Shown: one piece after another, positions 3,904-39,769 of the stretch
Layout: every line of letters begins with the position of its first letter
Numbering within the stretch: the stretch's first letter is position 1
DNA from: a virus
DNA: 39,769 bases
Virus record (IMG/VR): IMGVR_UViG_3300012922_000004
Span: 1-39,769 of that record
Reading direction: 5' to 3' (one strand)
Made by a program: the position numbers and the translations under genes
The notes under the pieces: generated by a model
What the model saw: the letters and a program-made list of their open reading frames with translations, nothing else
Told to the model about the DNA's origin: nothing
Databases searched by the model: none

Positions 3904-5001
3904 ATGGGGGAACCCAGGGAGCCGGGCGACGACCAAGATACCTACGGAATCCCCGTTGCCGAGCTCTTACGGGTCGAGATTGATCCAGCGAAGTGGATCA
4001 TTCCCGGATACGTGCAGGAGCAAGCCATAGCCGTGCTGGCGGGGCCGCCCAACGTAGGCAAGACGCTCCTCGGCATTGACTGGTGCGCGCAGGCCGTGGC
4101 TGCTGGCAAGCGCGTATTCGTCGGGCAGAACGAGGGCGGGTTGCGCGGGCTGCAGGACAGGTTGCGACGTGCCTGCGCCGCAGCCGGCATTGCAGACCCA
4201 CCAGACCGATTCACCTACCGCCGCAACATGGACGTGGCGCTCTCTGATCTACGAGCCATCAAGGATATGGCCACGGAGTTGGCAAATCACGATCTGCTGT
4301 TCCTGGATTCCCTCTCGAGCTTCTGGCCTGGTCTGAACGAAAACGATCCGCAGCACATGAGCATGGTGGCGGAGGCGCTGAAGATCCTTACCGAGTACAG
4401 CGGGGCGTCCACACTCGGAAACCACCACACCACCAAGGCCACGTGGAAGCCAGGCGAGAAGCCAAGCCTCGCGGACATCCGTGGCCACGGTGCCTTGGCT
4501 GGGCGGATTGACGCCGCGTTCATCTGTGTTCCGCCGAAGGATCGAGCGGCTGGCCTCGTCAGGTTCGATCTGCATGTGGTCAAGCAGCGTGACGAGGATT
4601 GGGCGCCCCCGAAGGCGTGTGAAGTGCTGATGACCGGACCGGCGGCGATCGTCGAGTACAAGGACATTCAGAACAGGACCGAAGGAAAGGCCCCCTCCAA
4701 GGCTGACGTGCGCGAGGCGTCGTTGGTAACTGAGATTTTGAAAGTGTGTACTGACGTGGCCAGTAGCGCTAACGAAGTTTATCGAAGACTGCTCAACGGC
4801 ACGCCAGACCAGCGCCGACTCGGGGGCCACAAGCCCGACACCATGAAGGCGATCAAGGAGTGCGTCCGTAACGGAAAGTTACAGGCCCATGAAAGCGGGG
4901 GCGTGTTCAAGCCGGTACCTGAAAAACCTAATGGTTCAAGCCGGTTCAACCGGTTCAACGAAAATCAGAACCGCACAGGTTCAAATCCGGACGAGGACTA
5001 A
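3904..5001 (+). CDS. RepA/AAA_25-like P-loop replicative helicase or initiator
   Basis: Walker A AGPPNVGKT. Walker B-like LLFLDSLSS. RecA-fold pattern. The 3' end carries iterons. Confidence 0.7.
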   Translation: MGEPREPGDDQDTYGIPVAELLRVEIDPAKWIIPGYVQEQAIAVLAGPPNVGKTLLGIDWCAQAVAAGKRVFVGQNEGGLRGLQDRLRRACAAAGIADPPDRFTYRRNMDVALSDLRAIKDMATELANHDLLFLDSLSSFWPGLNENDPQHMSMVAEALKILTEYSGASTLGNHHTTKATWKPGEKPSLADIRGHGALAGRIDAAFICVPPKDRAAGLVRFDLHVVKQRDEDWAPPKACEVLMTGPAAIVEYKDIQNRTEGKAPSKADVREASLVTEILKVCTDVASSANEVYRRLLNGTPDQRRLGGHKPDTMKAIKECVRNGKLQAHESGGVFKPVPEKPNGSSRFNRFNENQNRTGSNPDED

Positions 5002-5119: not shown

Positions 5120-5755
5120 GTGATCTACTTCATCAGGGAAGGCGGCCTTGACGGAATGATCAAGATCGGGATGGCGGCGGATCCGATTCGCCGCCTAGCT
5201 TCTCTTCAAACTGCTCATCACAAAAGACTGGAACTTTTAGCGGTTGCTGATGGATCAAGAGAGCGAGAACATGAGGAGCATCAGCGATGGGGACTGCTAC
5301 GCGTCAAGGGCGAATGGTTCAGGCCGGACGAAGAACTAGTTAAGTATGTCGCAAATCTCAATTGGGTGTCTGGTGATTGTGGTGATTGTGGTGAAGAAAC
5401 AATGTATCACTTGGTTACCGATAATGAGGTATTTTCTCACGAGCCATTGTGTGAGAAATGCGAAGAAGCAGAAGCAAGACGAGTCGAACTGCATACCGCC
5501 AAGAGGCCGAAAACCAGGTTTCTTGTCTGGCTGAAGCAATTCAAAGAGGAGGATAGTCCCATGGGTGACTTAGCCAGAGACATGGCTGATGATAGAAACA
5601 AGCCGAGAAGCTTTAATACGCTTGGGTCTCTGGAGAAGTATCTGACCAACCTCGGTGCTTGCGATGAGGCACTCCAAACGGCCGAAGAAGCTTGGCATGA
5701 GTACGTTGGAATTACCGAGTACGACACGGCAAGACTACCCCTGGCATCGCCATGA
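5120..5755 (+). CDS. T5orf172 (GIY-YIG-like) domain, CxxC zinc ribbon and YozE-like SAM domain fusion
   Basis: GTG start. IYFIREGG..MIKIGMAADPIRRLASLQT...KGEWF; CGDCG..CEKC; FLVWLKQFKEEDSPMGDLARDMADD...AEEAWHEY. Visibly lower G+C. Confidence 0.6.
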   Translation: MIYFIREGGLDGMIKIGMAADPIRRLASLQTAHHKRLELLAVADGSREREHEEHQRWGLLRVKGEWFRPDEELVKYVANLNWVSGDCGDCGEETMYHLVTDNEVFSHEPLCEKCEEAEARRVELHTAKRPKTRFLVWLKQFKEEDSPMGDLARDMADDRNKPRSFNTLGSLEKYLTNLGACDEALQTAEEAWHEYVGITEYDTARLPLASP

Positions 5756-6168
5756 TCCCGTCGCAGACGTTGCGTGAACTGGGGGCGGAGACACGGACGT
5801 TCCGCACCGTGAAGGGCGCCATGCTCTGGTATGCGGGTCAGCTGGCGAATCGCTTGCGTGTTAACCGCGATTTCGAGGCCGGTGTCGTCCCGCGCAGTAC
5901 GGAATCGATCAATCGCGCCAACGCGACGTTCGCGGCGCTGGCGGGCTGCCTGCGCAGCTATCACCCGGCGGACACGGAATCTCCACTCCTCGGAGAACAC
6001 GTTCTCTGGCTTGTCGCGTGGTACGAAACAACCGAAGGGGACGGCCAATATTTGGCGGACTGGGCGGAAATGAGCCGATGGGCGTTCGTGAAGCGTTGCA
6101 GGAAGACAGAGAGGACGCTACGAAAAAGGATGGAACAGGCCGGGTTGCTCGAGGAGCGTGATGCTTAG
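5752..6168 (+). CDS. Hypothetical protein (138 aa), possible regulator
   Basis: ATGA overlap. The C-terminal WAFVKRCRKTERTLRKRMEQAGLL is HTH-like. It lies just upstream of the packaging genes. Confidence 0.5.
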   Translation: MIPSQTLRELGAETRTFRTVKGAMLWYAGQLANRLRVNRDFEAGVVPRSTESINRANATFAALAGCLRSYHPADTESPLLGEHVLWLVAWYETTEGDGQYLADWAEMSRWAFVKRCRKTERTLRKRMEQAGLLEERDA

Positions 6169-6556
6169 TCGTCGCAAAATACAGGAGTTGAAGCATGCCA
6201 TTCGCGATGACTTCGATCTGGCACGAGAGCGTCGTGGATGGCTGGAGGAAGAAAGAGGGCAGCAAGTCGTGTACTTCATCCAAATCGCCGGGAAGCTAGA
6301 TTCGCCAATCAAGATTGGATTCAGTACCGAGGGCGGCCTTGAGGACCGTTTGTTAGCGCTACAGACTGGCAACCCATACCGGCTTCGGATTCTTGCAACA
6401 ATGCCTGGCGGGCAGGAGGTAGAAGCGCGTCTGCACGAAAGCTTCGAGCATGTCCGCATGATGGGCGAGTGGTTCGAGGCGTCTCCGGCCCTATTGGCGC
6501 TGATCGACGGGCTGCCGAATTGCGTGCGCCTTGACACGCCAGAGGAGACAGGGTAA
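6161..6556 (+). CDS. T5orf172 (GIY-YIG-like) domain protein, paralog of 5120-5755
   Basis: VYFIQIAG..PIKIGFS...RLLALQTGNPYRLRILA...MGEWFE. GAGGAG lies 4 nt upstream of ATG 6161. Confidence 0.6.
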   Translation: MLSRRKIQELKHAIRDDFDLARERRGWLEEERGQQVVYFIQIAGKLDSPIKIGFSTEGGLEDRLLALQTGNPYRLRILATMPGGQEVEARLHESFEHVRMMGEWFEASPALLALIDGLPNCVRLDTPEETG

Positions 6557-6625
6557 TGGCATGTACGCTGGGTGTTGTGCCCCCGGTGTCCGATAAATCT
6601 TTGATTCTTCATCCGAGGTGCCCTC

Positions 6626-6946
6626 ATGCCACGTGGCGGTAAGCGTACTGGCGCCGGCAGACCCCTGGGCGCGAAGAACGTACTGCCGCAGGGCTGCGTA
6701 GCTGCCGTCAGGGCCGCGGGGCTTCGGGTACCGGCAACGGCCAGCGATGCAGAGCGTGCGCTGGCGGATCGTGCGCTCTGTCGCCTAGCCGATGTGCTCG
6801 AGGGTAACGTGCATCCCGCCATGGCGTTTCCGGTGCTGCAGGCTGGTCGGCTACTCCGCGAGGAGATTTGCGGGCCGGTGCCGAAGAAGCTCGAGCACGG
6901 CGGCCCGAACGGCGCTCCGCTGGAAGTCATGATCAGGGAAGTGTGA
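6626..6946 (+). CDS. terS: Putative terminase small subunit
   Basis: N-terminal MPRGGKRTGAGRPLGAKN motif. Sits immediately upstream of TerL and overlaps it (GTGA). Confidence 0.5.
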   Translation: MPRGGKRTGAGRPLGAKNVLPQGCVAAVRAAGLRVPATASDAERALADRALCRLADVLEGNVHPAMAFPVLQAGRLLREEICGPVPKKLEHGGPNGAPLEVMIREV

Positions 6947-8352
6947 GCGTCGAGTTACCGCACGACTTCACGCCGCGGGAATATCAGCGGCCGTTCATGC
7001 GGCATTTCATCGGGAACAAGCACGATGGTTCGGGCAGGCGGGCGGCGTGGGTGGTTCACCGCCGTGGCGGCAAAGACCTGGCCGGAATGCATGTGCTCAA
7101 TGTCTGCGCCCACCGGAGGACGGGGGCTTACTGGCACACCTTCCCGAGCTTTGAACAGGGCCGTAAGGCGATTTGGGAAGGATTCACGAAAGACGGGAAG
7201 CGGATCATCGACAACGTATTCCCCGCCCCGCTGATCAAGAGCCGCGATAACCAGCAGATGATGATCGAGCTCAGGTGCGGGTCGATCTACCGGATGATCG
7301 GCATGGACCGCATCGAGACGGTGGGCGCTGGACCTGTCGGTGTTCTGCACTCCGAGTACAGCATCGCGAAGCCAAAGGGCGCGGACCTGATCGCCCCGAT
7401 GTTGAGAGAGAACAACGGCTGGGAAGCGTACGTGTACACTCCTCGCGGGAACAACCACGGGAAGCGACTGTTTGACGCCTTCACCCGACTATCGAACCAA
7501 GGCAATCCAGCGTACTTCGCTGAGTTGCTCACCCTGTACGATACGCGTGCGTACGACCCGGATCTGACGCTCAAGGAGGAGCGCGAGCGCGGGCGCCCGG
7601 AAGCACTGATCCAGCAGGAATATCTCTGCGACTGGACGGCGGCGGATGTCGGGTCGGTGTTCGGGGATCTGGTTCCGGAGGCGTGCGAGTTCGAGCATCC
7701 TGCAGACGGGGTCTACACGTCTTGGGACTTAGGCGTGTCCGACGCCACCGCGATTTGGTTCTGGCGACTCGCCGGCGATGGGGTGGACTTCATCGACCAC
7801 TACGAGGCGACCGGGCAGCATGCTCAGCACTTCATCGACGTAATCGAAGGCAAGCCGTACAAGTACGTGCGGCACTATCTCCCCCACGACGGGCGCAATC
7901 GAACATGGGTAACGCAGGTGACAGCGCTGGATACTCTGGATGCGCGCTGGCCTGGTAAGGTGGAAGTGCTTCCGCAGGAAAGCCTGACCAACGGGATCGA
8001 GGCCGGGCGCTGGCTGTTGCAGCGGAAGACGCGGTTTCACTCGCGAGCTACGGCCGGAGTGGATGCGCTGAAGGCGTATCACTACGAGTGGGACGAAGAT
8101 CGCAAGGTGTTGGCGCGATTGCCGATGCATGATTGGTCGTCGCATACGGCTGACGCGTTCAGATATGCCGCCTCGGTCGTCAAATTCACAGGCTTGGTCG
8201 ACGCACCCAAGGCATCTGAACCGGAGCGGGTGCCGGGCGTGCCTCCTGGTGCCGCGTACGTCGATGAGCAAGGCCAGCCGCGCATCAACGTCACCTTCAA
8301 CGAACTGCGAACTGCGACGCTGCGACGCGCGAACAGGAGACAGAGGATATGA
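6943..8352 (+). CDS. terL: Terminase large subunit
   Basis: ATPase region VVHRRGGKDLAG. Nuclease motifs YLPHDG and HDWSSHTADAFRY. 469 aa from GTG 6943. Confidence 0.9.
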   Translation: MSVELPHDFTPREYQRPFMRHFIGNKHDGSGRRAAWVVHRRGGKDLAGMHVLNVCAHRRTGAYWHTFPSFEQGRKAIWEGFTKDGKRIIDNVFPAPLIKSRDNQQMMIELRCGSIYRMIGMDRIETVGAGPVGVLHSEYSIAKPKGADLIAPMLRENNGWEAYVYTPRGNNHGKRLFDAFTRLSNQGNPAYFAELLTLYDTRAYDPDLTLKEERERGRPEALIQQEYLCDWTAADVGSVFGDLVPEACEFEHPADGVYTSWDLGVSDATAIWFWRLAGDGVDFIDHYEATGQHAQHFIDVIEGKPYKYVRHYLPHDGRNRTWVTQVTALDTLDARWPGKVEVLPQESLTNGIEAGRWLLQRKTRFHSRATAGVDALKAYHYEWDEDRKVLARLPMHDWSSHTADAFRYAASVVKFTGLVDAPKASEPERVPGVPPGAAYVDEQGQPRINVTFNELRTATLRRANRRQRI

Positions 8353-11311: not shown

Positions 11312-11383
11312 TGGCGGGTACCCAAGTGGCAAGGGGCGAGACTGTTAATCTCGAGGCCGTTGGTTCGAATCCAACCTCGCCAG
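11312..11383 (+). tRNA. tRNA-Asn (anticodon GUU)
   Basis: Hand-folded cloverleaf. Acceptor TGGCGGG pairs with CTCGCCA (one G-U). U8 present. D-loop AGTGGCA. Anticodon stem CGAGA/TCTCG with loop CTGTTAA. T-arm GTTGG-TTCGAAT-CCAAC. Discriminator G. U1-A72/G73 as in bacterial tRNA-Asn. CCA is not encoded. Confidence 0.9.
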
Positions 11384-17446: not shown

Positions 17447-19081
17447 ATGCTCTCCCGCGCGTCCGCCAAGAAGGTCCGGCGCAACCGGACCGAGACGGCG
17501 CACATCCCCGCGCCGACCGGCGGCCTAAACACGGTAGACCCTGGCTATGCGTTGCCAGAGTTCGACTGTCCGGTCCTTTTCAACATGATCGGCGGAGAGA
17601 ATGGCGCGCGGATCCGCCGCGGGTACAAGGAGTGGTGCACGGGAATGACGGGGGCGACCGACAACACGGTGCGGTCCGTATTGCCGTTCTTTGGCTCAGG
17701 AACGAATGGCGCGAAGGATCGACTATTTGCCTGTACCAGCAGCAAGATCTGGAGCGTCGGAGCGTCTAGCGCCGCCCCGCCGTCAGTGCTCAACTTCGCT
17801 AGCACGGCAGGGGATGCGGGCTGGGGTGTCGCGCGCGGCGTCGTGAATGCAGCCAATGCGCACTTCCTCATGCTCTGCGACGAGGAGAACGGCTATCACG
17901 TCTACACCGAGAGCACGGATCTCTGGGCCAAGATTGCCGCGGGTGCTGGCGCGACCGACATCAACGGTGTGGATCCGGCGAAGTTCGTCTTTGTCACCGT
18001 CTGGAAAAACTTCGTCCTCTTCGTTGAGAAAGACACGTCGCGGATGTGGTTCGGGACCGCGACGCGCGCCTTGTTCGGCACTGTCACCAGCTTCGACTTC
18101 GGCGCGCAGTTCCCGCACGGTGGCAACCTGGTCGGATTATGGAGTTCCACCGGAGACTACGGGATTGGCATCGATGACCACCTGGTCGCCGTCTCCTCCT
18201 CGGGCGACGTGGTGATCTACAAGGGTACCGATCCGAACGACGCGACCAAATTCTCGATTGCGGGTGTCTACTTCATCGGTGGCGTGCCCAAGGGTCGACG
18301 CATCGCCTACCCGCACGGCGGCGATTTGCTGCTCCTTGGCAGTGTGGGAATTGTGCCGCTGTCTAGGCTGTCGGCAGCGGATGGCGACTGGAGCGATACG
18401 TCGCAGTATGTGACTCGCAAGATCGGCAACGAGTTCTCGAAACTCGTCACTACCTACGGTGGCATCAAGGGCTGGTCGCTGATTCTGCATCCGGAAGAGA
18501 GCGCACTGCTAGTCATGGTTCCGGTAGCGGACGGGCAGCCCACCACGCAACTCGCGCTCAGTACTTTGACCGGCGGCTGGTCGAAGTACCGCGATCTTCC
18601 GATCCTTTCGTGCGAAGCGTGGGGTAAGAAGCTCTATTTCGGAACGGCAGATGGCCGGGTTTGCATCAACACAGACTATCTTGACAACGTGAATCTAGCT
18701 GCCACCGCGTTCAGCCTGATCAAGTTCAGCGGGATCACGGCGTTTCGGAACGGCGAGAATCCGCGGCAGAAGCAGGTCAAGGAAATCCGAGCGACCTATC
18801 TGTACGAGGGGGGGGTGCTGGCAACCACAGAGGAAGCGCGGTTCCGGTACAACCTCACAGAGGCGACAGCACCAAACCCGGTAGCTTCCAATAGCAGCAA
18901 CGTCTTCGATACGGCCCTCTTCGACTTCGCAACGTTTGGTGGCGACTTCGCCACCCAGCAGCTTCCCCGCGGAGCCTGTGGGATGGGGCCGGACGTAGCG
19001 ATCGCGTTCGCTGGATCTGCCGGCAGCCGCACGGTGCTGGTCGGGATCGACGTGGTGTTCGAAGAGGGTGGAGTGAATTAA
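17447..19081 (+). CDS. T7 gp12-like tail nozzle (tail tubular B-like)
   Basis: The N-terminal TGGLNTVDPGYALPEFDCPVLFNMI..GARIRRGY resembles the gp12 pattern GGIS....P.....N......G..KR.G. 544 aa and beta-rich. Confidence 0.5.
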   Translation: MLSRASAKKVRRNRTETAHIPAPTGGLNTVDPGYALPEFDCPVLFNMIGGENGARIRRGYKEWCTGMTGATDNTVRSVLPFFGSGTNGAKDRLFACTSSKIWSVGASSAAPPSVLNFASTAGDAGWGVARGVVNAANAHFLMLCDEENGYHVYTESTDLWAKIAAGAGATDINGVDPAKFVFVTVWKNFVLFVEKDTSRMWFGTATRALFGTVTSFDFGAQFPHGGNLVGLWSSTGDYGIGIDDHLVAVSSSGDVVIYKGTDPNDATKFSIAGVYFIGGVPKGRRIAYPHGGDLLLLGSVGIVPLSRLSAADGDWSDTSQYVTRKIGNEFSKLVTTYGGIKGWSLILHPEESALLVMVPVADGQPTTQLALSTLTGGWSKYRDLPILSCEAWGKKLYFGTADGRVCINTDYLDNVNLAATAFSLIKFSGITAFRNGENPRQKQVKEIRATYLYEGGVLATTEEARFRYNLTEATAPNPVASNSSNVFDTALFDFATFGGDFATQQLPRGACGMGPDVAIAFAGSAGSRTVLVGIDVVFEEGGVN

Positions 19082-19488
19082 TGTTCATCGTCCGCGCCAG
19101 CCAGCAGTTTCATTGGCTGGAGAAGCGGGTCGGGATCTCGTTCTCTTCCAAGGCAAAAGCGATTGCGGCTCTCAAGGAAGGAACCGATCAGATCATGGGC
19201 ATGGTCGGTTATGACCACTTCACCCAGAATTCAGCGCAGGCGCATTACGCCTTGGACACACCGATCGCATGGAGAGCGCTGGCGCAGCCCTCCTTTGACT
19301 ATCCGTTCATGGAACTAAAGCTCGGACTGCTGATCGGCATGGTGCTGTCGACTAACACCCGCAGCCTGGAACTGACCGAACATATCGGGTTCACCCCGAC
19401 CTATCGAATCGACGACGCGGTCGCGCCCGGGGTTCATTTCGTAATCTTCGAGATGCGGCGGGAGCACTGCCGCTGGTTGAAGGAGTAG
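19081..19488 (+). CDS. GNAT/RimJ-like acetyltransferase-fold protein (tentative)
   Basis: YPFMELKLGLLIGMVLSTNTRSLELTEHIGF matches the RimJ-type ...V...N..S..L.E..GF core. No clear Q/RxxGxG/A loop. Lower G+C by eye. Confidence 0.4.
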   Translation: MFIVRASQQFHWLEKRVGISFSSKAKAIAALKEGTDQIMGMVGYDHFTQNSAQAHYALDTPIAWRALAQPSFDYPFMELKLGLLIGMVLSTNTRSLELTEHIGFTPTYRIDDAVAPGVHFVIFEMRREHCRWLKE

Positions 19489-23116: not shown

Positions 23117-24163
23117 ATGCGAAATCGTCTGCTCGTCACTGCGGGCATTATCACCATCATGCTTTTCGGGTCTGCGCTGGGCGGCTACTTCTGGCATGTC
23201 TCGCACGCAGACGCCTCCCGTAACAGCGCGGGCACCTACAGCCTGGCCACATCTCCGGTGGTTAGCGGGCAGACGATCGGGTCGGCCCTCTGGAACAACA
23301 CCTTCAACGACCTGGCTACCGGCGTCACCGACAGTCTGGATCGCAATGGCCGCGGCGGAATGCTGGCCGCGCTCCGCGGGATCGATGGCACGGTGGCCGC
23401 GCCTGCGCTGAGTTTCACGTCGGAGACGGGCAGCGGGCTCTATCGGATCGGTACGTCTGACGCGGGCTTCGCGATCTCGGGTGCGAAGGTTGGCGAGTGG
23501 ACTGCGAACGGGTATCGCGGCGCCAACGGCGCGGTGGCTACGCCGAGTTTGAGCTTCTTCAACGACACCGGCAGCGGACTCTACCGGATCGGCTCGAACG
23601 ATATCGGGTTCGCGATCAACGGCGCGATTGTGCAGGAGTGGACGGCCACCGGATCCGCGTTTACGGGAACGCTGAGCGCCGCCGTCTCCGGCACCGGATC
23701 AACCTTCCTGGCCACCTTCTTCGAAGCGTCACTGGCGAACGGGAACAGCGGCACTCTGGCGGTTGGAAAAGCCAACTCAGCGAATGCGTCGGTTGGGCTC
23801 CAGTTTAATCCGAACGCTACAGCCGCCAACTCGACCGGCTGCCTGGTGGTCAACGGCCAGACGGCAACGCTGTGCGTGGACGGGAACAACAAGACGATCG
23901 TGGGTGGGGCGATGACTGTTGCCGGCACAACCACGTCGAACGGGTTTTTCTGCAACAACTACTCAAGCGACACAGATCGCTGCGGCATCGCTACGCTAGA
24001 CGGTTCAGGAAACAAGACCGAGACTATGGCGGCCGGCGTGCATGCCTGCGTGTGTACGGACACCACCGTGGTAGCCGCGGCGGCGGTCGGCTGTAACGTC
24101 TCCGGCGGCACCCTGACGCTCAAGGGCACTGCGGCACACCTGATCAACTACTTCTGCTTCTGA
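23117..24163 (+). CDS. Tail fibre-like protein with hydrophobic N-terminus
   Basis: AGGAG SD. Two copies of the ...AP(A/S)LSF..(E/D)TGSGLYRIG..D.GFAI.G... fibre repeat. N-terminal LLVTAGIITIMLFGSALGGYFW. Cys-rich C-terminus. Confidence 0.6.
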   Translation: MRNRLLVTAGIITIMLFGSALGGYFWHVSHADASRNSAGTYSLATSPVVSGQTIGSALWNNTFNDLATGVTDSLDRNGRGGMLAALRGIDGTVAAPALSFTSETGSGLYRIGTSDAGFAISGAKVGEWTANGYRGANGAVATPSLSFFNDTGSGLYRIGSNDIGFAINGAIVQEWTATGSAFTGTLSAAVSGTGSTFLATFFEASLANGNSGTLAVGKANSANASVGLQFNPNATAANSTGCLVVNGQTATLCVDGNNKTIVGGAMTVAGTTTSNGFFCNNYSSDTDRCGIATLDGSGNKTETMAAGVHACVCTDTTVVAAAAVGCNVSGGTLTLKGTAAHLINYFCF

Positions 24164-24378
24164 CCGGCGCAGAACTTCTCGCATTCGCGCCGTTCCCATT
24201 CGCAAGTCGGCCCCGGATACCAATAGCCAACCGACAATACCATCCCGCACTCGTGGATGCAGGTGATCTCGTAGTGCAGGTTAGGGGTTTGCACGAGGGC
24301 CAGTTGTTCGCACTCAACGCCCCCGCACCCAATCAACATCGCCAACACGAGCCATCGCATGGAGGCGCAAGCTAGCAC
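24148..24378 (-). CDS. Antisense-oriented Cys-rich lipoprotein (moron)
   Basis: Lipobox LAMLIG-C. The mature peptide has 8 Cys. This is the only plausible ORF in the 254-nt gap of the plus-strand operon. Good GC3. Start is GTG 24378 or ATG 24360. Confidence 0.55.
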   Translation of the reverse strand: MLACASMRWLVLAMLIGCGGVECEQLALVQTPNLHYEITCIHECGMVLSVGYWYPGPTCEWERRECEKFCAGQKQK

Positions 24379-24416: not shown

Positions 24417-24623
24417 ATGATCACTGGCAAGCAGATCGCCGTCATTGCCGGGGCTGCTGGTGCCTTCGTGGGCGGCGTCGTGCTCGGCCTTGGGAGCGGA
24501 CATGCCTCGCCCCCGCCGATCGACGCGAAGATCGAGGCGCTGGCGAGGGATGTGACTGAGATGCGCGCGGACATCAAAGCGATCAAATGCAAGCTGAACA
24601 TCGACGGAACGTGTCCACGATGA
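24417..24623 (+). CDS. Single-TM protein with periplasmic coiled coil (holin or i-spanin-like)
   Basis: TM IAVIAGAAGAFVGGVVLGLG, then IDAKIEALARDVTEMRADIKAIKCKL. 68 aa. Confidence 0.5.
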   Translation: MITGKQIAVIAGAAGAFVGGVVLGLGSGHASPPPIDAKIEALARDVTEMRADIKAIKCKLNIDGTCPR

Positions 24624-24817
24624 GAGTCCTTCTTCTCCTGCTTCTGCTGACCGCCTGCGCCACCCCGACGCGGATCATGGTCCCGCATGTCTGCGTCCCC
24701 TCGCGCGATTCGCCAGCATTCCAGAAGTGCAAGGCGGACTGCGAAGGTGATGCCTTCATCGTGGAGAACGCGGCGGATACCGCCTGCTACTGCCGCAAGC
24801 CGCCGGAGGGCACATAG
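24620..24817 (+). CDS. Small Cys-rich lipoprotein (o-spanin-like or immunity-like)
   Basis: ATGA overlap. MRVLLLLLLLTA-C is a canonical lipobox. The mature peptide has 7 Cys. Confidence 0.6.
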   Translation: MRVLLLLLLLTACATPTRIMVPHVCVPSRDSPAFQKCKADCEGDAFIVENAADTACYCRKPPEGT

Positions 24818-25207
24818 ATGTGGGTCTATTCGGTCAAGCCGGAGAAGTTCTATCACGCGGTGGGCGGCGTGGAACGGTTGCTTCCGGAAACCCCGTACTC
24901 TGGATTTGGGGAAGCGAAGAACGATCCGAGCAAGCAGCAGCTAGCTGGCCTCGGGCCTATTCCGCAGGGGGTCTACTGGATCGGGGCAGAGCGCGAGGAC
25001 TCGGATTGTGGGCCGGTGGTGCTACCCCTGACTCCGCTGCGCGGAACAGAGACGTTCCAGCGTGGCTCGTTCGAGATCCATGGCGACTCGAAAGAGCACC
25101 CAGGCTCCGCCTCGCATGGCTGCATCATCCTCCCGCGCAAGCTGCGAGAGCAGATCGCGGACGGACACGACAAGCTGCTGGTAGTACTGGCCGGGATCCA
25201 GACCTAG
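24818..25207 (+). CDS. Tlde1/DUF2778-type L,D-transpeptidase-fold peptidase (endolysin candidate)
   Basis: YSGFGEAKNDPSKQQLAGLGPIPQGVYWIG and SFEIHGDSKEHPGSASHGCIILP (H-x13-S-H-G-C). GGAGGG SD. Confidence 0.75.
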   Translation: MWVYSVKPEKFYHAVGGVERLLPETPYSGFGEAKNDPSKQQLAGLGPIPQGVYWIGAEREDSDCGPVVLPLTPLRGTETFQRGSFEIHGDSKEHPGSASHGCIILPRKLREQIADGHDKLLVVLAGIQT

Positions 25208-25269: not shown

Positions 25270-26055
25270 TTGAATGGGCCGGCGATCGTTACGCTCGATA
25301 TCGAGACAGCGCCGCTTCAGTCCTACCACTGGGGACTTTGGGACCAGAACATCGGGCTGGATCAGATCGCGATCGAGTGGAGCATTCTTAGCTTCTCCGC
25401 AAAGTGGCTTGGCGAGCTCGGGGTCATCTACCGAGACACGGGAGGGCGTGGCAGGGCTAACGTCCGCAAGGATAGATGCCTTCTGGTTGACCTTTGGAAC
25501 ATCCTCGACAAGGCGGACATTGTGATCGCGCAGAACGGGCAAGCCTTCGATGTGAAGAAAATCAATGCCCGGATGTTGATGCACGGGATGAAGCCGTACT
25601 CACCGATCAAGATTGTAGATACGATGCTCGTTAGTCGCAGACACTTCGACTTTACGAGCAACAAACTACAATGGCTTTCCGAGCACCTGACGGAGATCAA
25701 GAAGTCTCCTCACAAGAAGTTCCCGGGCTTCGAACTCTGGGCAGAGTGCCTGAAAGACAATCCGGCCGCGTGGGCGGAGATGAAGCACTACAACTGCCAG
25801 GATACGCTGGCCACCGAACAGCTCTACCTGAAGCTGCGTCCCTGGATGGTTGGGCACCCCAATATAGCCGTCTACTCCTCGAGCGAGGATCCGCAGTGCC
25901 CGAAGTGCGGGAGCCACGAGATGCAGCGCCGCGGGAGTGCGTTTACTCAGTCTGGCGAATACCACCGCTTCCGGTGCAACAAATGCGGTGGGTGGGCGCG
26001 GTCTAGATACACCACGAACACGCTGGAGAAACGCCATGCGCTGCTGTCCAACTAG
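25270..26055 (+). CDS. DnaQ/PolB-exo-like 3'-5' exonuclease with C-terminal zinc ribbon
   Basis: ExoI LDIETAP, ExoII QNGQAFDVKKIN, ExoIII HYNCQDTLATEQLY, and CPKCG...CNKCG. The only in-frame start near the domain is TTG 25270. Confidence 0.7.
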   Translation: MNGPAIVTLDIETAPLQSYHWGLWDQNIGLDQIAIEWSILSFSAKWLGELGVIYRDTGGRGRANVRKDRCLLVDLWNILDKADIVIAQNGQAFDVKKINARMLMHGMKPYSPIKIVDTMLVSRRHFDFTSNKLQWLSEHLTEIKKSPHKKFPGFELWAECLKDNPAAWAEMKHYNCQDTLATEQLYLKLRPWMVGHPNIAVYSSSEDPQCPKCGSHEMQRRGSAFTQSGEYHRFRCNKCGGWARSRYTTNTLEKRHALLSN

Positions 26056-26126
26056 ATGGCCTGCTCAATATGGTGCGCGTGCGCACTCATGGGCGATCGC
26101 GGCCTGCGCGAATGCGAGGATCCGAT

Positions 26127-26387
26127 ATGCCTAGAAGCAAGATGGCGGGTCGCCCCTGTCAACGCTGTTCGGAGAAAGATGCGCAGCTCGCGACGCGGGC
26201 GGCGGAGAATCTGACCCTGCGTATGCAATGCGAAGCGCAGGAAAACATTCTCTCTTACTACAACGGATCGTGTGAGGAGATGGGGAAGCTGATCGACGAT
26301 ATGTCTGGAGGCTTGGTGGCTCGTTTGAAGCGCATCTTGGCCCGCCACGGGGTTGTGTTCGCACCAGAGAGGCGGCCGCTCCAATGA
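26127..26387 (+). CDS. Hypothetical soluble Cys-containing protein (86 aa)
   Basis: GAGGA 6 nt upstream of ATG 26127. Sequence MPRSKMAGRPCQRCSEKDAQL... Confidence 0.5.
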   Translation: MPRSKMAGRPCQRCSEKDAQLATRAAENLTLRMQCEAQENILSYYNGSCEEMGKLIDDMSGGLVARLKRILARHGVVFAPERRPLQ

Positions 26388-26629
26388 TTCCTCTTCTGCG
26401 GAAGCTCCTTCACGGCTTTTTCTTTGATGAGCGCGCGGCACGAAGGTGGATCCGTGGCGGGCTGATGGCATTCGCTGCGAGCGGTGTGGCCTTCGCCGAT
26501 CAGTTGGGCTCCGCCCTCGGTTCGCCAACAGCCACGAAGTGGGTCCGGGTCACGGCCATCATCGCTGGATTCGCGGCCGGCGCAATCCAGAGCTCTGCCG
26601 CCAAGCCTCGGCTCAAGGTGGTCCCATGA
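26384..26629 (+). CDS. Two-TM membrane protein (class II holin-like)
   Basis: ATGA overlap. Hydrophobic segments GGLMAFAASGVAFA and WVRVTAIIAGFAAGAI. Basic C-terminus. Confidence 0.5.
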   Translation: MIPLLRKLLHGFFFDERAARRWIRGGLMAFAASGVAFADQLGSALGSPTATKWVRVTAIIAGFAAGAIQSSAAKPRLKVVP

Positions 26630-26841
26630 GATGGCTAGTAATGGTTGGTTTACTAAGTCCTGGCGTTAGTCAAGGATCGGCTGAGCCGGGCCTGGTGATC
26701 GTCTGCGCTAGTGGCGGCGTGCTTCCAATGGGGCGCGGAGCGGTGGCGATCGGTGGAACCTGCGTGCTGCACGACGGGGCTGGGCGGGCGACCACCGTGG
26801 AGTCTTTGGGCGCGTACGACCAAACGCTGGCGGTCCCATGA
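26626..26841 (+). CDS. Small protein with signal-like N-terminus
   Basis: ATGA overlap. Sequence MRWLVMVGLLSPGVSQG... 71 aa. Confidence 0.4.
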   Translation: MRWLVMVGLLSPGVSQGSAEPGLVIVCASGGVLPMGRGAVAIGGTCVLHDGAGRATTVESLGAYDQTLAVP

Positions 26842-26930
26842 CCCTCTTCCTTCTCGGCTTCCTATCCTGTTTTGCGCTGGGCACAGGGGCGCTGTTTCTA
26901 GCCGCGTGGAAACTTGGCGTGTGGCGATGA
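26838..26930 (+). CDS. 30-aa single-TM microprotein
   Basis: Hand-translated: MTLFLLGFLSCFALGTGALFLAAWKLGVWR. ATGA overlaps at both ends. Confidence 0.3.
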   Translation: MTLFLLGFLSCFALGTGALFLAAWKLGVWR

Positions 26931-39568: not shown

Positions 39569-39748
39569 CTACTGGCGGTTTTCTTCCAGTCTCGCGATGC
39601 GGGCGAGAGCCTTGTCTAGTGCGGTGCTGAAGGCGAGCAGGCCTATCTCGCGCTCCAGGGCGGCACAGCGCCGCTCGAGTGAAACAACTTGGCCAGCGAG
39701 CGTACGGGCGCCAGAGCCGCTGACCCTCTTTGACCTCTGAACCTTCAC
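39569..39748 (-). CDS. 59-aa coiled-coil protein downstream of the repressor (GTG start)
   Basis: Hand-translated: MKVQRSKRVSGSGARTLAGQVVSLERRCAALEREIGLLAFSTALDKALARIARLEENRQ. GGAGGA 5 nt upstream. It spans the terminal-repeat boundary. Confidence 0.5.
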   Translation of the reverse strand: MKVQRSKRVSGSGARTLAGQVVSLERRCAALEREIGLLAFSTALDKALARIARLEENRQ

Positions 39749-39769
39749 GGGTGTCCTCCGGGTTGTCCC
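39647..39769. repeat. Right copy of the 123-bp terminal direct repeat
   Basis: Identical to 1-123. It lies inside the small ORF 39569-39748. Confidence 0.95.

Follow-up and report, generated by a model that had tools for sequence, protein, structure and literature searches.

A probable phage endolysin with an L,D-transpeptidase fold in the genome of a temperate Mx8/Mx9-like virus

The virus genome deposited as IMG/VR record IMGVR_UViG_3300012922_000004 (39,769 bases, the whole of which was analysed and is called the window below) encodes, in its late operon, a protein of 129 amino acids that belongs to the Tlde1/DUF2778 family and that probably serves as the endolysin of this phage (Table 1). 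Its family, fold, conserved residues and gene context were observed directly in sequence comparisons and in a structural model, and they point to a lytic function. Endolysins are usually glycosidases, amidases, or peptidases of the metallo- or CHAP/NlpC type. The Tlde1/DUF2778 family itself, its L,D-transpeptidase ancestry and the existence of catalogued phage homologues are already known, so that what is put forward as new is the endolysin role of an enzyme with an L,D-transpeptidase fold, which we consider probable on the evidence of sequence and model. Catalogued phage relatives are gathered in phrog_24118 or named "DUF2778 domain-containing protein" (in Erwinia and Dickeya jumbo phages and in phage JC1), the records being otherwise labelled "hypothetical". 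A preprint distinguishes three DUF2778 families, to which it gives the names Tae5-7. In the PhaLP database of phage lytic proteins a "YkuD" class has 10 entries, of which one carries PF10908, and no paper proposing or testing an endolysin role for the Tlde1/DUF2778 family was found in the searchable literature.

All three open reading frames (ORFs) named in a preliminary description of this region, which had been made from the sequence, are present, and its assignment of the third product to the Tlde1/DUF2778 family with a YkuD-type fold is borne out. The protein scores 45.1 bits against Pfam PF10908 (Tlde1_dom, DUF2778; gathering cut-off 30.1, expectation value (E) 1.7e-11), with residues 27-112 aligned to positions 6-103 of the 120 in the model, and phrog_24118 ("unknown function") matches it over its full length (E 1.2e-30). 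Of the two profiles that had been suggested as a check, PF10908 was thus matched above its cut-off but PF03734 (YkuD) was not (14.5 bits, cut-off 23.4, E 0.053); NCBIfam assigned neither the enzyme nor any of the small proteins considered here to a family. The catalytic motif reads H88-x10-S99-H100-G101-C102 and replaces the H-x13-S-H-G-C given earlier, the 13 intervening residues running from His to Cys and not from His to Ser. In 57 aligned homologues Y27, G29, G46, P47, P49, G51, G65 and R82 are invariant, as are H88, G89, D90, S99, G101, C102 and R110, while position 100 is His in 46 and the x13 spacing is found in 52. Phage-type homologues begin with MWxY, have no signal sequence and contain one or two Cys each; the window enzyme has two, only C102 being conserved, and its N-terminus is not hydrophobic and carries no signal peptide.

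An AlphaFold 2 (AF2) model built on the alignment of 57 homologues is confident (predicted local distance difference test score, pLDDT, 93.5; predicted TM-score, pTM, 0.88), and its ten best Foldseek matches in the PDB are all YkuD L,D-transpeptidases, five of them with E <= 1.6e-3. The top match is 5BMQ (E 5e-4, TM-score 0.60), followed by 4LPQ, LdtMt2 and others, with a Foldseek probability of 1.0 for the top seven and TM-scores of about 0.5-0.6 on the query. A profile search of PDB sequences aligned 4LPQ over HGD...ASHGC (E 0.014), and phmmer searches of the same sequences with the enzyme and two homologues found no relative. The fold assignment made earlier was therefore confirmed for the YkuD L,D-transpeptidases but not for Tlde1a, whose structure 7UMA appeared neither among the 50 Foldseek matches listed nor when PDB sequences were searched by phmmer and by profile. 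Profile and model together support placing the enzyme in the Tlde1/DUF2778 family with an L,D-transpeptidase fold.

Tlde1a (Tae5), a type VI secretion system (T6SS) effector from Salmonella Typhimurium, shares with the window enzyme PF10908, the Cys-His motif and a His-Cys spacing shorter than that of YkuD enzymes; it acts on the wall from the periplasmic side, as is predicted for the window enzyme. The two differ in length (173 and 129 residues) and in spacing (x9, from H121 to C131, against x13), and the two conserved disulfides that Tlde1a has along with a capping subdomain are lacking in the window enzyme, which failed to retrieve 7UMA. They also differ in context, which for Tlde1a is a T6SS with a DUF2195 immunity gene and in the window a phage late operon with holin-like and spanin-like genes. 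Since neither a T6SS, VgrG, PAAR, Rhs or DUF2195 gene nor structural closeness to Tlde1a was found in the profile scans and fold comparison, the enzyme is not classed as a T6SS effector. The YkuD L,D-transpeptidases (5BMQ, 4LPQ, LdtMt2) are its best structural matches, but it stays under the PF03734 cut-off, has the shorter His-Cys spacing and lacks their signal peptide, lipobox and wall-binding domain, and it would be expected to break the wall down and not to build it.

The endolysin reading is favoured because the gene contexts in other phages point to it. The family is large: a word-indexed search yielded 137 relatives, and a profile search of 1.84 billion cluster representatives gave 3,508 at E <= 1e-3, of which 2,151 reached E <= 1e-10. 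The 150 best-scoring proteins mostly stand alone, with about 118-135 residues, and include a few tandem duplicates and a few C-terminal domains of large proteins. In IMG/VR, 360 stretches of viral contigs encode a relative; homologues in bacterial genomes occur mainly in Alphaproteobacteria, Acidobacteriota, Burkholderiales and Enterobacterales, and a longer form of about 170 residues with an N-terminal extension is found in cellular context. Among the close relatives (E down to 1e-70), P0128-P0130, P0266 and P0267 are tandem duplications of 262-325 residues or C-terminal domains of proteins of 602 and 1,815 residues, which suggests from sequence that the phage-type clade is also used in polymorphic toxins.

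The nearest arrangement is that of a related temperate podovirus (loci L001 and L002), the enzyme of which is 59% identical and the tail fibre and exonuclease of which are orthologous to those of the window. The order in L001 is tailspike, enzyme (6001-6390), a 68-residue protein with two transmembrane (TM) segments (6378-6584), a 165-residue protein that combines lipobox LLLAC with a TM segment at the C-terminus (6581-7078), and exonuclease, and all junctions overlap. In L171 (enzyme 56% identical) the tailspike gene is followed by those of a 113-residue two-TM protein, of a 113-residue protein with a signal and a C-terminal TM segment, and of the enzyme, the cassette standing at the end of the late operon and adjoining the integrase gene. 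Two loci are P2-like: in L073 the order is GPL head completion protein, an X-like ORF, a 117-residue membrane protein, the enzyme (with overlapping start), GpR and GpS, and in L033 the enzyme gene lies between those of GPL and GpR. In P2 itself the same slot between X and R is occupied by holin, endolysin and lysABC (Y-K-lysABC). Two further loci suspected of being P2-like, L050 and L009, proved not to be so.

A homologue is also encoded by the Citromicrobium microvirus vB_Cib_ssDNA_P1 (L085), a genome of 4,360 nucleotides with six ORFs. Its ORF2/gpB (1328-1738), published in 2018 as having no match, is 39% identical to the window enzyme (E 1e-17) with a motif HGD...ASSGC, and the gene sits between those of capsid and Rep; in a related amoyvirus the place between Cap and Rep is taken by the gene of an M15 peptidase. 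The 58-residue gpE of the same microvirus (4014-4190) has one TM segment, and gpB and gpE could be its lysis genes.

Over 67 non-identical, non-jumbo viral loci, a TM protein of at most 200 residues lies within two genes of the enzyme gene and on the same strand in 50, as compared to 23% elsewhere in the same loci (p = 4e-19), figures that are approximate because ORF calls are crude in GC-rich loci (the flanks of L001, for instance, were miscalled). The window, L001, L171, L073, L003 and L168 all show membrane-protein neighbours of the enzyme, and some neighbours match curated models, namely GTA_holin_3TM, the holin family phrog_34682 (E 1e-4), Phage_holin_4_1 and an Rz-like spanin (E 9e-5). 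When 145 larger neighbour proteins were scanned, only five conventional muralytic matches were obtained (three SLT, one phage tail lysozyme and one GH108).

Within the window, about 74 called or candidate ORFs were compared with Pfam (E <= 0.01) and PHROGs (E <= 1e-3), and apart from one label no lysozyme, transglycosylase, amidase, CHAP, NlpC/P60, M15 or M23 domain was found in them. The earlier statement that the 129-residue protein is the only lysin candidate thus holds as far as these profile searches tell. The label belongs to phrog_5107, "lysis; amidase", which matches a 544-residue protein encoded at 17447-19081 (+). This protein was rejected as a conventional lysin: it has no Pfam amidase match, its gene follows that of the SU10-type adaptor, and it is 48% identical to the "head closure" protein of Mx9. 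Its homologues in deposited records are named tubular tail B or structural proteins, and one Sulfitobacter phage record alone says "amidase"; by sequence the protein appears to be a tubular tail B or nozzle protein, and the phrog_5107 label seems to stem from that single record.

The 129-residue protein of the window hence combines a putative peptidoglycan-active domain, the lack of a secretion signal and holin-like and spanin-like neighbours in the late region, as an endolysin would. In this it resembles the canonical lysis cassettes (SRRzRz1 of lambda, Y-K-lysABC of P2, and that of T1 with the unimolecular spanin gp11), in which a signal-less wall enzyme also stands beside small membrane proteins, and a spanin-like neighbour, either a lipoprotein with a C-terminal TM segment or an Rz-like protein, is found at the end of the late operon. 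Unlike in those cassettes, the catalytic domain is not that of a lysozyme, transglycosylase, amidase or M15, M23, CHAP or NlpC/P60 peptidase, and the window cassette is split by an exonuclease gene and has an additional pair of a TM protein and a Cys-rich lipoprotein.

Table 1. Genes of the candidate lysis region of the window, and the integrase gene.
Positions	Strand	Product or proposed role	Basis
24417-24623	+	68-residue protein with N-terminal TM segment; candidate holin, antiholin or very short i-spanin-like protein	TM segment, heptads, gene overlap
24620-24817	+	65-residue Cys-rich lipoprotein	Lipobox LLLTA-C, hydrophobic segment, homologues near Tlde1-like genes
24818-25207	+	129-residue Tlde1_dom/YkuD-fold Cys-His enzyme, probable endolysin	PF10908, phrog_24118, AF2 model, gene context of relatives
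25270-26055	+	261-residue DnaQ/RNase_H_2-type exonuclease	phrog_403 "DNA polymerase exonuclease subunit" (E 7.5e-103), Pfam RNase_H_2
26384-26629	+	81-residue protein, candidate holin	Homologues downstream of the enzyme in L001 and L007
26927-27361	+	144-residue protein with unimolecular-spanin architecture	LCAAC signal and C-terminal TM segment
30012-31094	-	Integrase	Pfam/PHROGs scan

The preliminary description had proposed an unconventional endolysin with spanin-like partners placed upstream. Comparative genomics supports the endolysin half of this proposal but not the other, as the partners conserved with L001 and L002 lie 1.2-2.1 kb downstream of the enzyme gene, beyond the exonuclease gene and a 91-residue ORF. 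The first of them, the 81-residue candidate holin, is 40% identical (E 2e-13) to the 68-residue L001 protein, whose ORF runs across the stop of the Tlde1-like gene, and it also matches downstream of the enzyme in L007; it has two Gly/Ala-rich, moderately hydrophobic segments, one of which alone passes a relaxed hydropathy threshold. The second, the 144-residue protein, is 30% identical (E 5e-7) to the L001 protein at 6581-7078. Its lipobox-like LCAAC is not canonical and its C-terminal TM segment spans about residues 106-124, an architecture of N-terminal signal and C-terminal TM segment that it shares with the L001 and L171 proteins; searches of Pfam and PHROGs did not relate it to any named family of spanins. 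The exonuclease between enzyme and partners is not part of the lysis function, and its L001 orthologue, 70% identical, follows an intact three-gene cassette. Its gene lies, together with 26112-26387, within the split lysis region, where the G+C content is lower (0.59), and the protein ends in a tail that resembles a Cys4 zinc ribbon. Between the two downstream partners, some 300 nucleotides (26630-26926) are without a convincing gene, containing only overlapping ORFs of poor coding quality, and could hold a regulatory element.

As an endolysin, the 129-residue enzyme would accumulate in the cytoplasm late in infection, and it suits cytoplasmic folding and release by a holin because it has no signal peptide, and the family one or two Cys and no conserved disulfides. 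A small membrane protein acting as holin, for which the 81-residue and/or the 68-residue protein are candidates, would then give access to the wall, where Cys102, activated by His88, may acylate at the L-centre carbonyl of meso-diaminopimelate (mDAP) in stem peptides, as in L,D-transpeptidases and Tlde1a. Rapid lysis would require load-bearing bonds to be cut, beyond the trimming of free tetrapeptides; candidate bonds are the donor-stem mDAP-D-Ala bond in 4-3 cross-links, 3-3 cross-links, and the tethers between outer membrane and peptidoglycan. The 144-residue protein might then disrupt the outer membrane as a unimolecular spanin. Both the dependence on a holin and the specificity for one or other of these bonds are what we infer for the enzyme.

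Several observations weigh against this reading, the first of which concerns chemistry. Tlde1a, the only characterised relative, is an L,D-carboxypeptidase and exchange transpeptidase that removes or exchanges D-Ala4 and forms 3-3 cross-links, cleavage of cross-links not having been reported; directed to the periplasm of E. coli, Tlde1 does cause loss of envelope integrity, which speaks for a lytic role, and it kills growing cells. Activity of this type alone would not, by our analysis, dissolve the sacculus quickly, and for this reason an endopeptidase specificity is proposed for the window enzyme. As Tlde1a was retrieved neither by sequence nor by fold, its activity is not simply transferable to the window enzyme, and the clade is for the same reason distant enough to have a different specificity. 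That a bulky substituent can be hydrolysed off at the mDAP L-centre has a precedent in the E. coli amidase of the YkuD family that detaches Lpp. Within the window, the candidate holin is weakly hydrophobic, the conserved partners are some 1.2 kb away from the enzyme gene, and a lysin that escaped recognition could be among the many ORFs left without annotation. By the same crude calls, 25 of the 67 viral loci lack a small holin-like membrane protein up to three genes away. In Burkholderia phage JC1 the DUF2778 gene adjoins that of the terminase, and a separate cassette provides two holins, lysozyme, Rz and Rz1; in Erwinia and Dickeya jumbo phages, the proteins of which are 40-44% identical, there is no membrane-protein context, and Erwinia phage Y3 has a putative glycosyl hydrolase 2.7 kb from the enzyme homologue. 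The DUF2778 genes of JC1 and the jumbo phages thus stand outside a lysis cassette, unlike those of L001, L171 and L073. In L050 the homologue lies just upstream of the major tail protein gene. Taking JC1, the jumbo phages, L050 and the long cellular form together, the domain does not serve as lysin in all the phages that have it, and a second use of this module, as a toxin, is probable.

These observations bear on the possibility that the enzyme is an accessory lysis factor, trimming stems or cutting outer membrane-peptidoglycan tethers while an unrecognised protein carries out the bulk of wall degradation; the envelope would thereby be weakened, or the outer membrane set free. The carboxypeptidase and exchange activity of Tlde1a, which is not a cross-link hydrolase, would fit such a role, as would the many window ORFs without a family match and the occurrence of the domain alongside a conventional lysin in JC1, in Erwinia phage Y3 and in those few loci where a neighbour has an SLT, GH108 or lysozyme domain. 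We nevertheless regard it as unlikely: the complete genome yielded no other muralytic domain at the Pfam and PHROGs thresholds given above, there is hardly room for a second lysin in the P2-like contig L073 or in the six-ORF microvirus, and most loci have no recognised conventional lysin among the neighbours scanned.

The pair of genes directly upstream of the enzyme gene lends itself to a different explanation, and its features are given here for that reason. As had been noted, the three genes are tightly packed, with a 4-nt ATGA overlap at 24620-24623 and a TAG-ATG junction at 24815-24820. The 68-residue protein is indeed a single-TM protein with a predicted coiled coil: its one hydrophobic segment spans residues 7-25 and is followed by about four heptads in which eight of the nine a/d positions are hydrophobic. 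Its periplasmic part has only about 42 residues, including two C-terminal Cys, and no significant family match was found for it in Pfam, PHROGs or NCBIfam. For the lipoprotein, the lipobox LLLTA-C described previously was found again but the count of seven Cys was not, as six are present. An alternative start at 24587 would give an N-terminal MQxEHRxN in common with the nearest relative, and two other homologues are without it.

The lipoprotein family is small, with seven sequences, and shows strong conservation of the mature domain, in which four of the five Cys are the same in every homologue. Its model shows a helix and a beta-hairpin (pLDDT about 83 in the core, 70 overall), with no meaningful fold match; it has no Pfam or NCBIfam family match, neither to DUF2195 nor to any other immunity family, and PHROG matches to Rz-like proteins are confined to the signal peptide (E 0.055-0.087). 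Being predicted to fold and not proline-rich, it is unlikely to be a classical outer-membrane spanin (o-spanin). Characterised inner-membrane spanins (i-spanins) have a periplasmic part much longer than about 42 residues. With a folded lipoprotein and so short a periplasmic part in its neighbour, the spanin label for this pair is doubtful.

A homologue of the lipoprotein is encoded directly upstream of the Tlde1-like gene in L170 and one gene upstream in L172 and L173, so that lipoprotein and enzyme are found together in four phage contigs. L172 shares with the window only these two genes, with 48% identity for the enzyme and 75% for the lipoprotein (56 residues of its mature part), which indicates that the two genes travel together and that the lipoprotein is the more conserved. 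This co-occurrence argues for a functional link, as far as sequences go; the lipoprotein could be a partner or regulator of the enzyme, a factor in outer-membrane disruption, an immunity-like protein, or an exclusion protein, or it could block a conserved component of the host envelope. As L001, L171 and L073 do not have it, it is dispensable for the placement of the enzyme in a lysis cassette.

The order of a small periplasmic protein upstream and the enzyme downstream mirrors that of Tldi1 and Tlde1, so that the two genes might be a toxin-immunity cargo carried by the phage for competition or exclusion, with the enzyme as a Tlde1-type antibacterial toxin and the Cys-rich lipoprotein as its immunity protein. 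The joint occurrence in four phage contigs, with L172 sharing nothing else, would agree with this, and so would the close homologues of the domain at the C-terminus of proteins of 1815 and 602 residues, which resemble polymorphic toxins. Such a cargo is less likely than an endolysin, and in our estimate quite improbable, because there is no secretion-system context and most phage homologues are without this lipoprotein, yet do have holin-like or spanin-like neighbours. Neither T6SS, Rhs, PAAR or secretion signal nor DUF2195 or another immunity family was detected in the Pfam, PHROGs and NCBIfam scans; the gene is translationally coupled within a late same-strand operon after the tail genes; and lysis would be the only way for a toxin to leave the cytoplasm. 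It is moreover unusual for a cognate immunity protein to be more conserved than its toxin, as the lipoprotein is here. That the enzyme is instead packaged in the virion and remodels the wall locally at DNA injection is very improbable: the gene does directly follow the tail-fibre genes, and that of L050 lies next to a tail gene, but the domain stands alone and is not fused to any structural protein, in the Citromicrobium microvirus with its homologue the capsid protein alone was detected in the virion proteome, and the recurrent neighbours are membrane and not virion proteins.

If the endolysin reading holds, a Cys-His enzyme of L,D-transpeptidase fold would add a class to the known endolysins, phrog_24118 and ORF2/gpB of the Citromicrobium microvirus would receive a lysis function, and phage lysis enzymes would be linked in evolution with T6SS and polymorphic-toxin domains. 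The mode of lysis by a relative of stem-trimming enzymes would also reveal which bonds at the mDAP L-centre carry the load of the wall. A wider proposal, which we put forward tentatively and hold to be unlikely, is that the clade represents a widespread, unrecognised class of endolysins, spread over microviruses and tailed phages (Mx8-like, P2-like and others), acting, with a specificity other than that of Tlde1a, as L,D-endopeptidases at the mDAP L-centre carbonyl and accompanied in a subset that includes the present phage by the dedicated, highly conserved Cys-rich lipoprotein. In that case the enzymes would sever 3-3 cross-links, 4-3 cross-links on their donor side and perhaps also the outer-membrane tethers, and a pair resembling effector and immunity protein would have been re-used for lysis, the lipoprotein controlling or complementing the enzyme. 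L,D-cross-links are abundant in some of the groups with homologues (Alphaproteobacteria, Acidobacteriota, Burkholderiales and Enterobacterales), so that walls cross-linked in this way are a possible target for such enzymes as reagents or enzybiotics.

The genome in the window is complete and has a G+C content of 63%. A 123-bp exact direct repeat at both ends (1-123 and 39647-39769) leaves a unique length of about 39.65 kb and marks the sequence as circularly assembled or terminally redundant. A protein of identical sequence has been recorded for a metagenome contig of 39,787 nt. Besides the integrase, repressor-type regulators and a replication module are encoded (Pfam/PHROGs), and the late operon runs in the order terminase, portal, capsid, SU10-type adaptor, 544-residue tail protein, acyltransferase and tail fibres. 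The Myxococcus phages Mx8 and Mx9 have the same gene order, with 39.5% identity for the portal and 48% for the 544-residue protein. By these sequence comparisons the virus is a temperate Mx8/Mx9-like podovirus, and this kinship alone hints at a host in the Myxococcota. In a scan of bacterial genomes the closest relative was 55% identical at best, and 10 kb of the window found no match among deposited phages by megablast. No sigma-70 promoter or terminator was found between 23800 and 27600, a negative that is uninformative for this kind of host.

A further small lipoprotein is encoded on the opposite strand just before the candidate lysis region. This 76-residue ORF (24148-24378, -) overlaps the end of the tail-fibre gene (23117-24163) by 16 nt, and its product has eight Cys and, counted from Met7, a canonical lipobox MLIGC. 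L001 has a similarly placed Cys-rich lipoprotein on the opposite strand (4114-4380). Although homology was not found, the position recalls that of receptor-blocking or exclusion lipoproteins such as Llp of T5. Within the tail module, a gene for an acyl-CoA N-acyltransferase-like protein (phrog_4470; 19081-19488, +) takes the same position as Mx9_p87 in Mx9. A tRNA-Asn gene (GTT; 11312-11383, +) lies between the portal module and the next small ORFs. Two paralogous ORFs (5120-5755 and 6188-6556, both +) encode T5orf172/MUG113 domains, which are GIY-YIG-like, and in one of the two this domain is fused to a YozE_SAM_like domain, in a region of lower G+C content (0.54).

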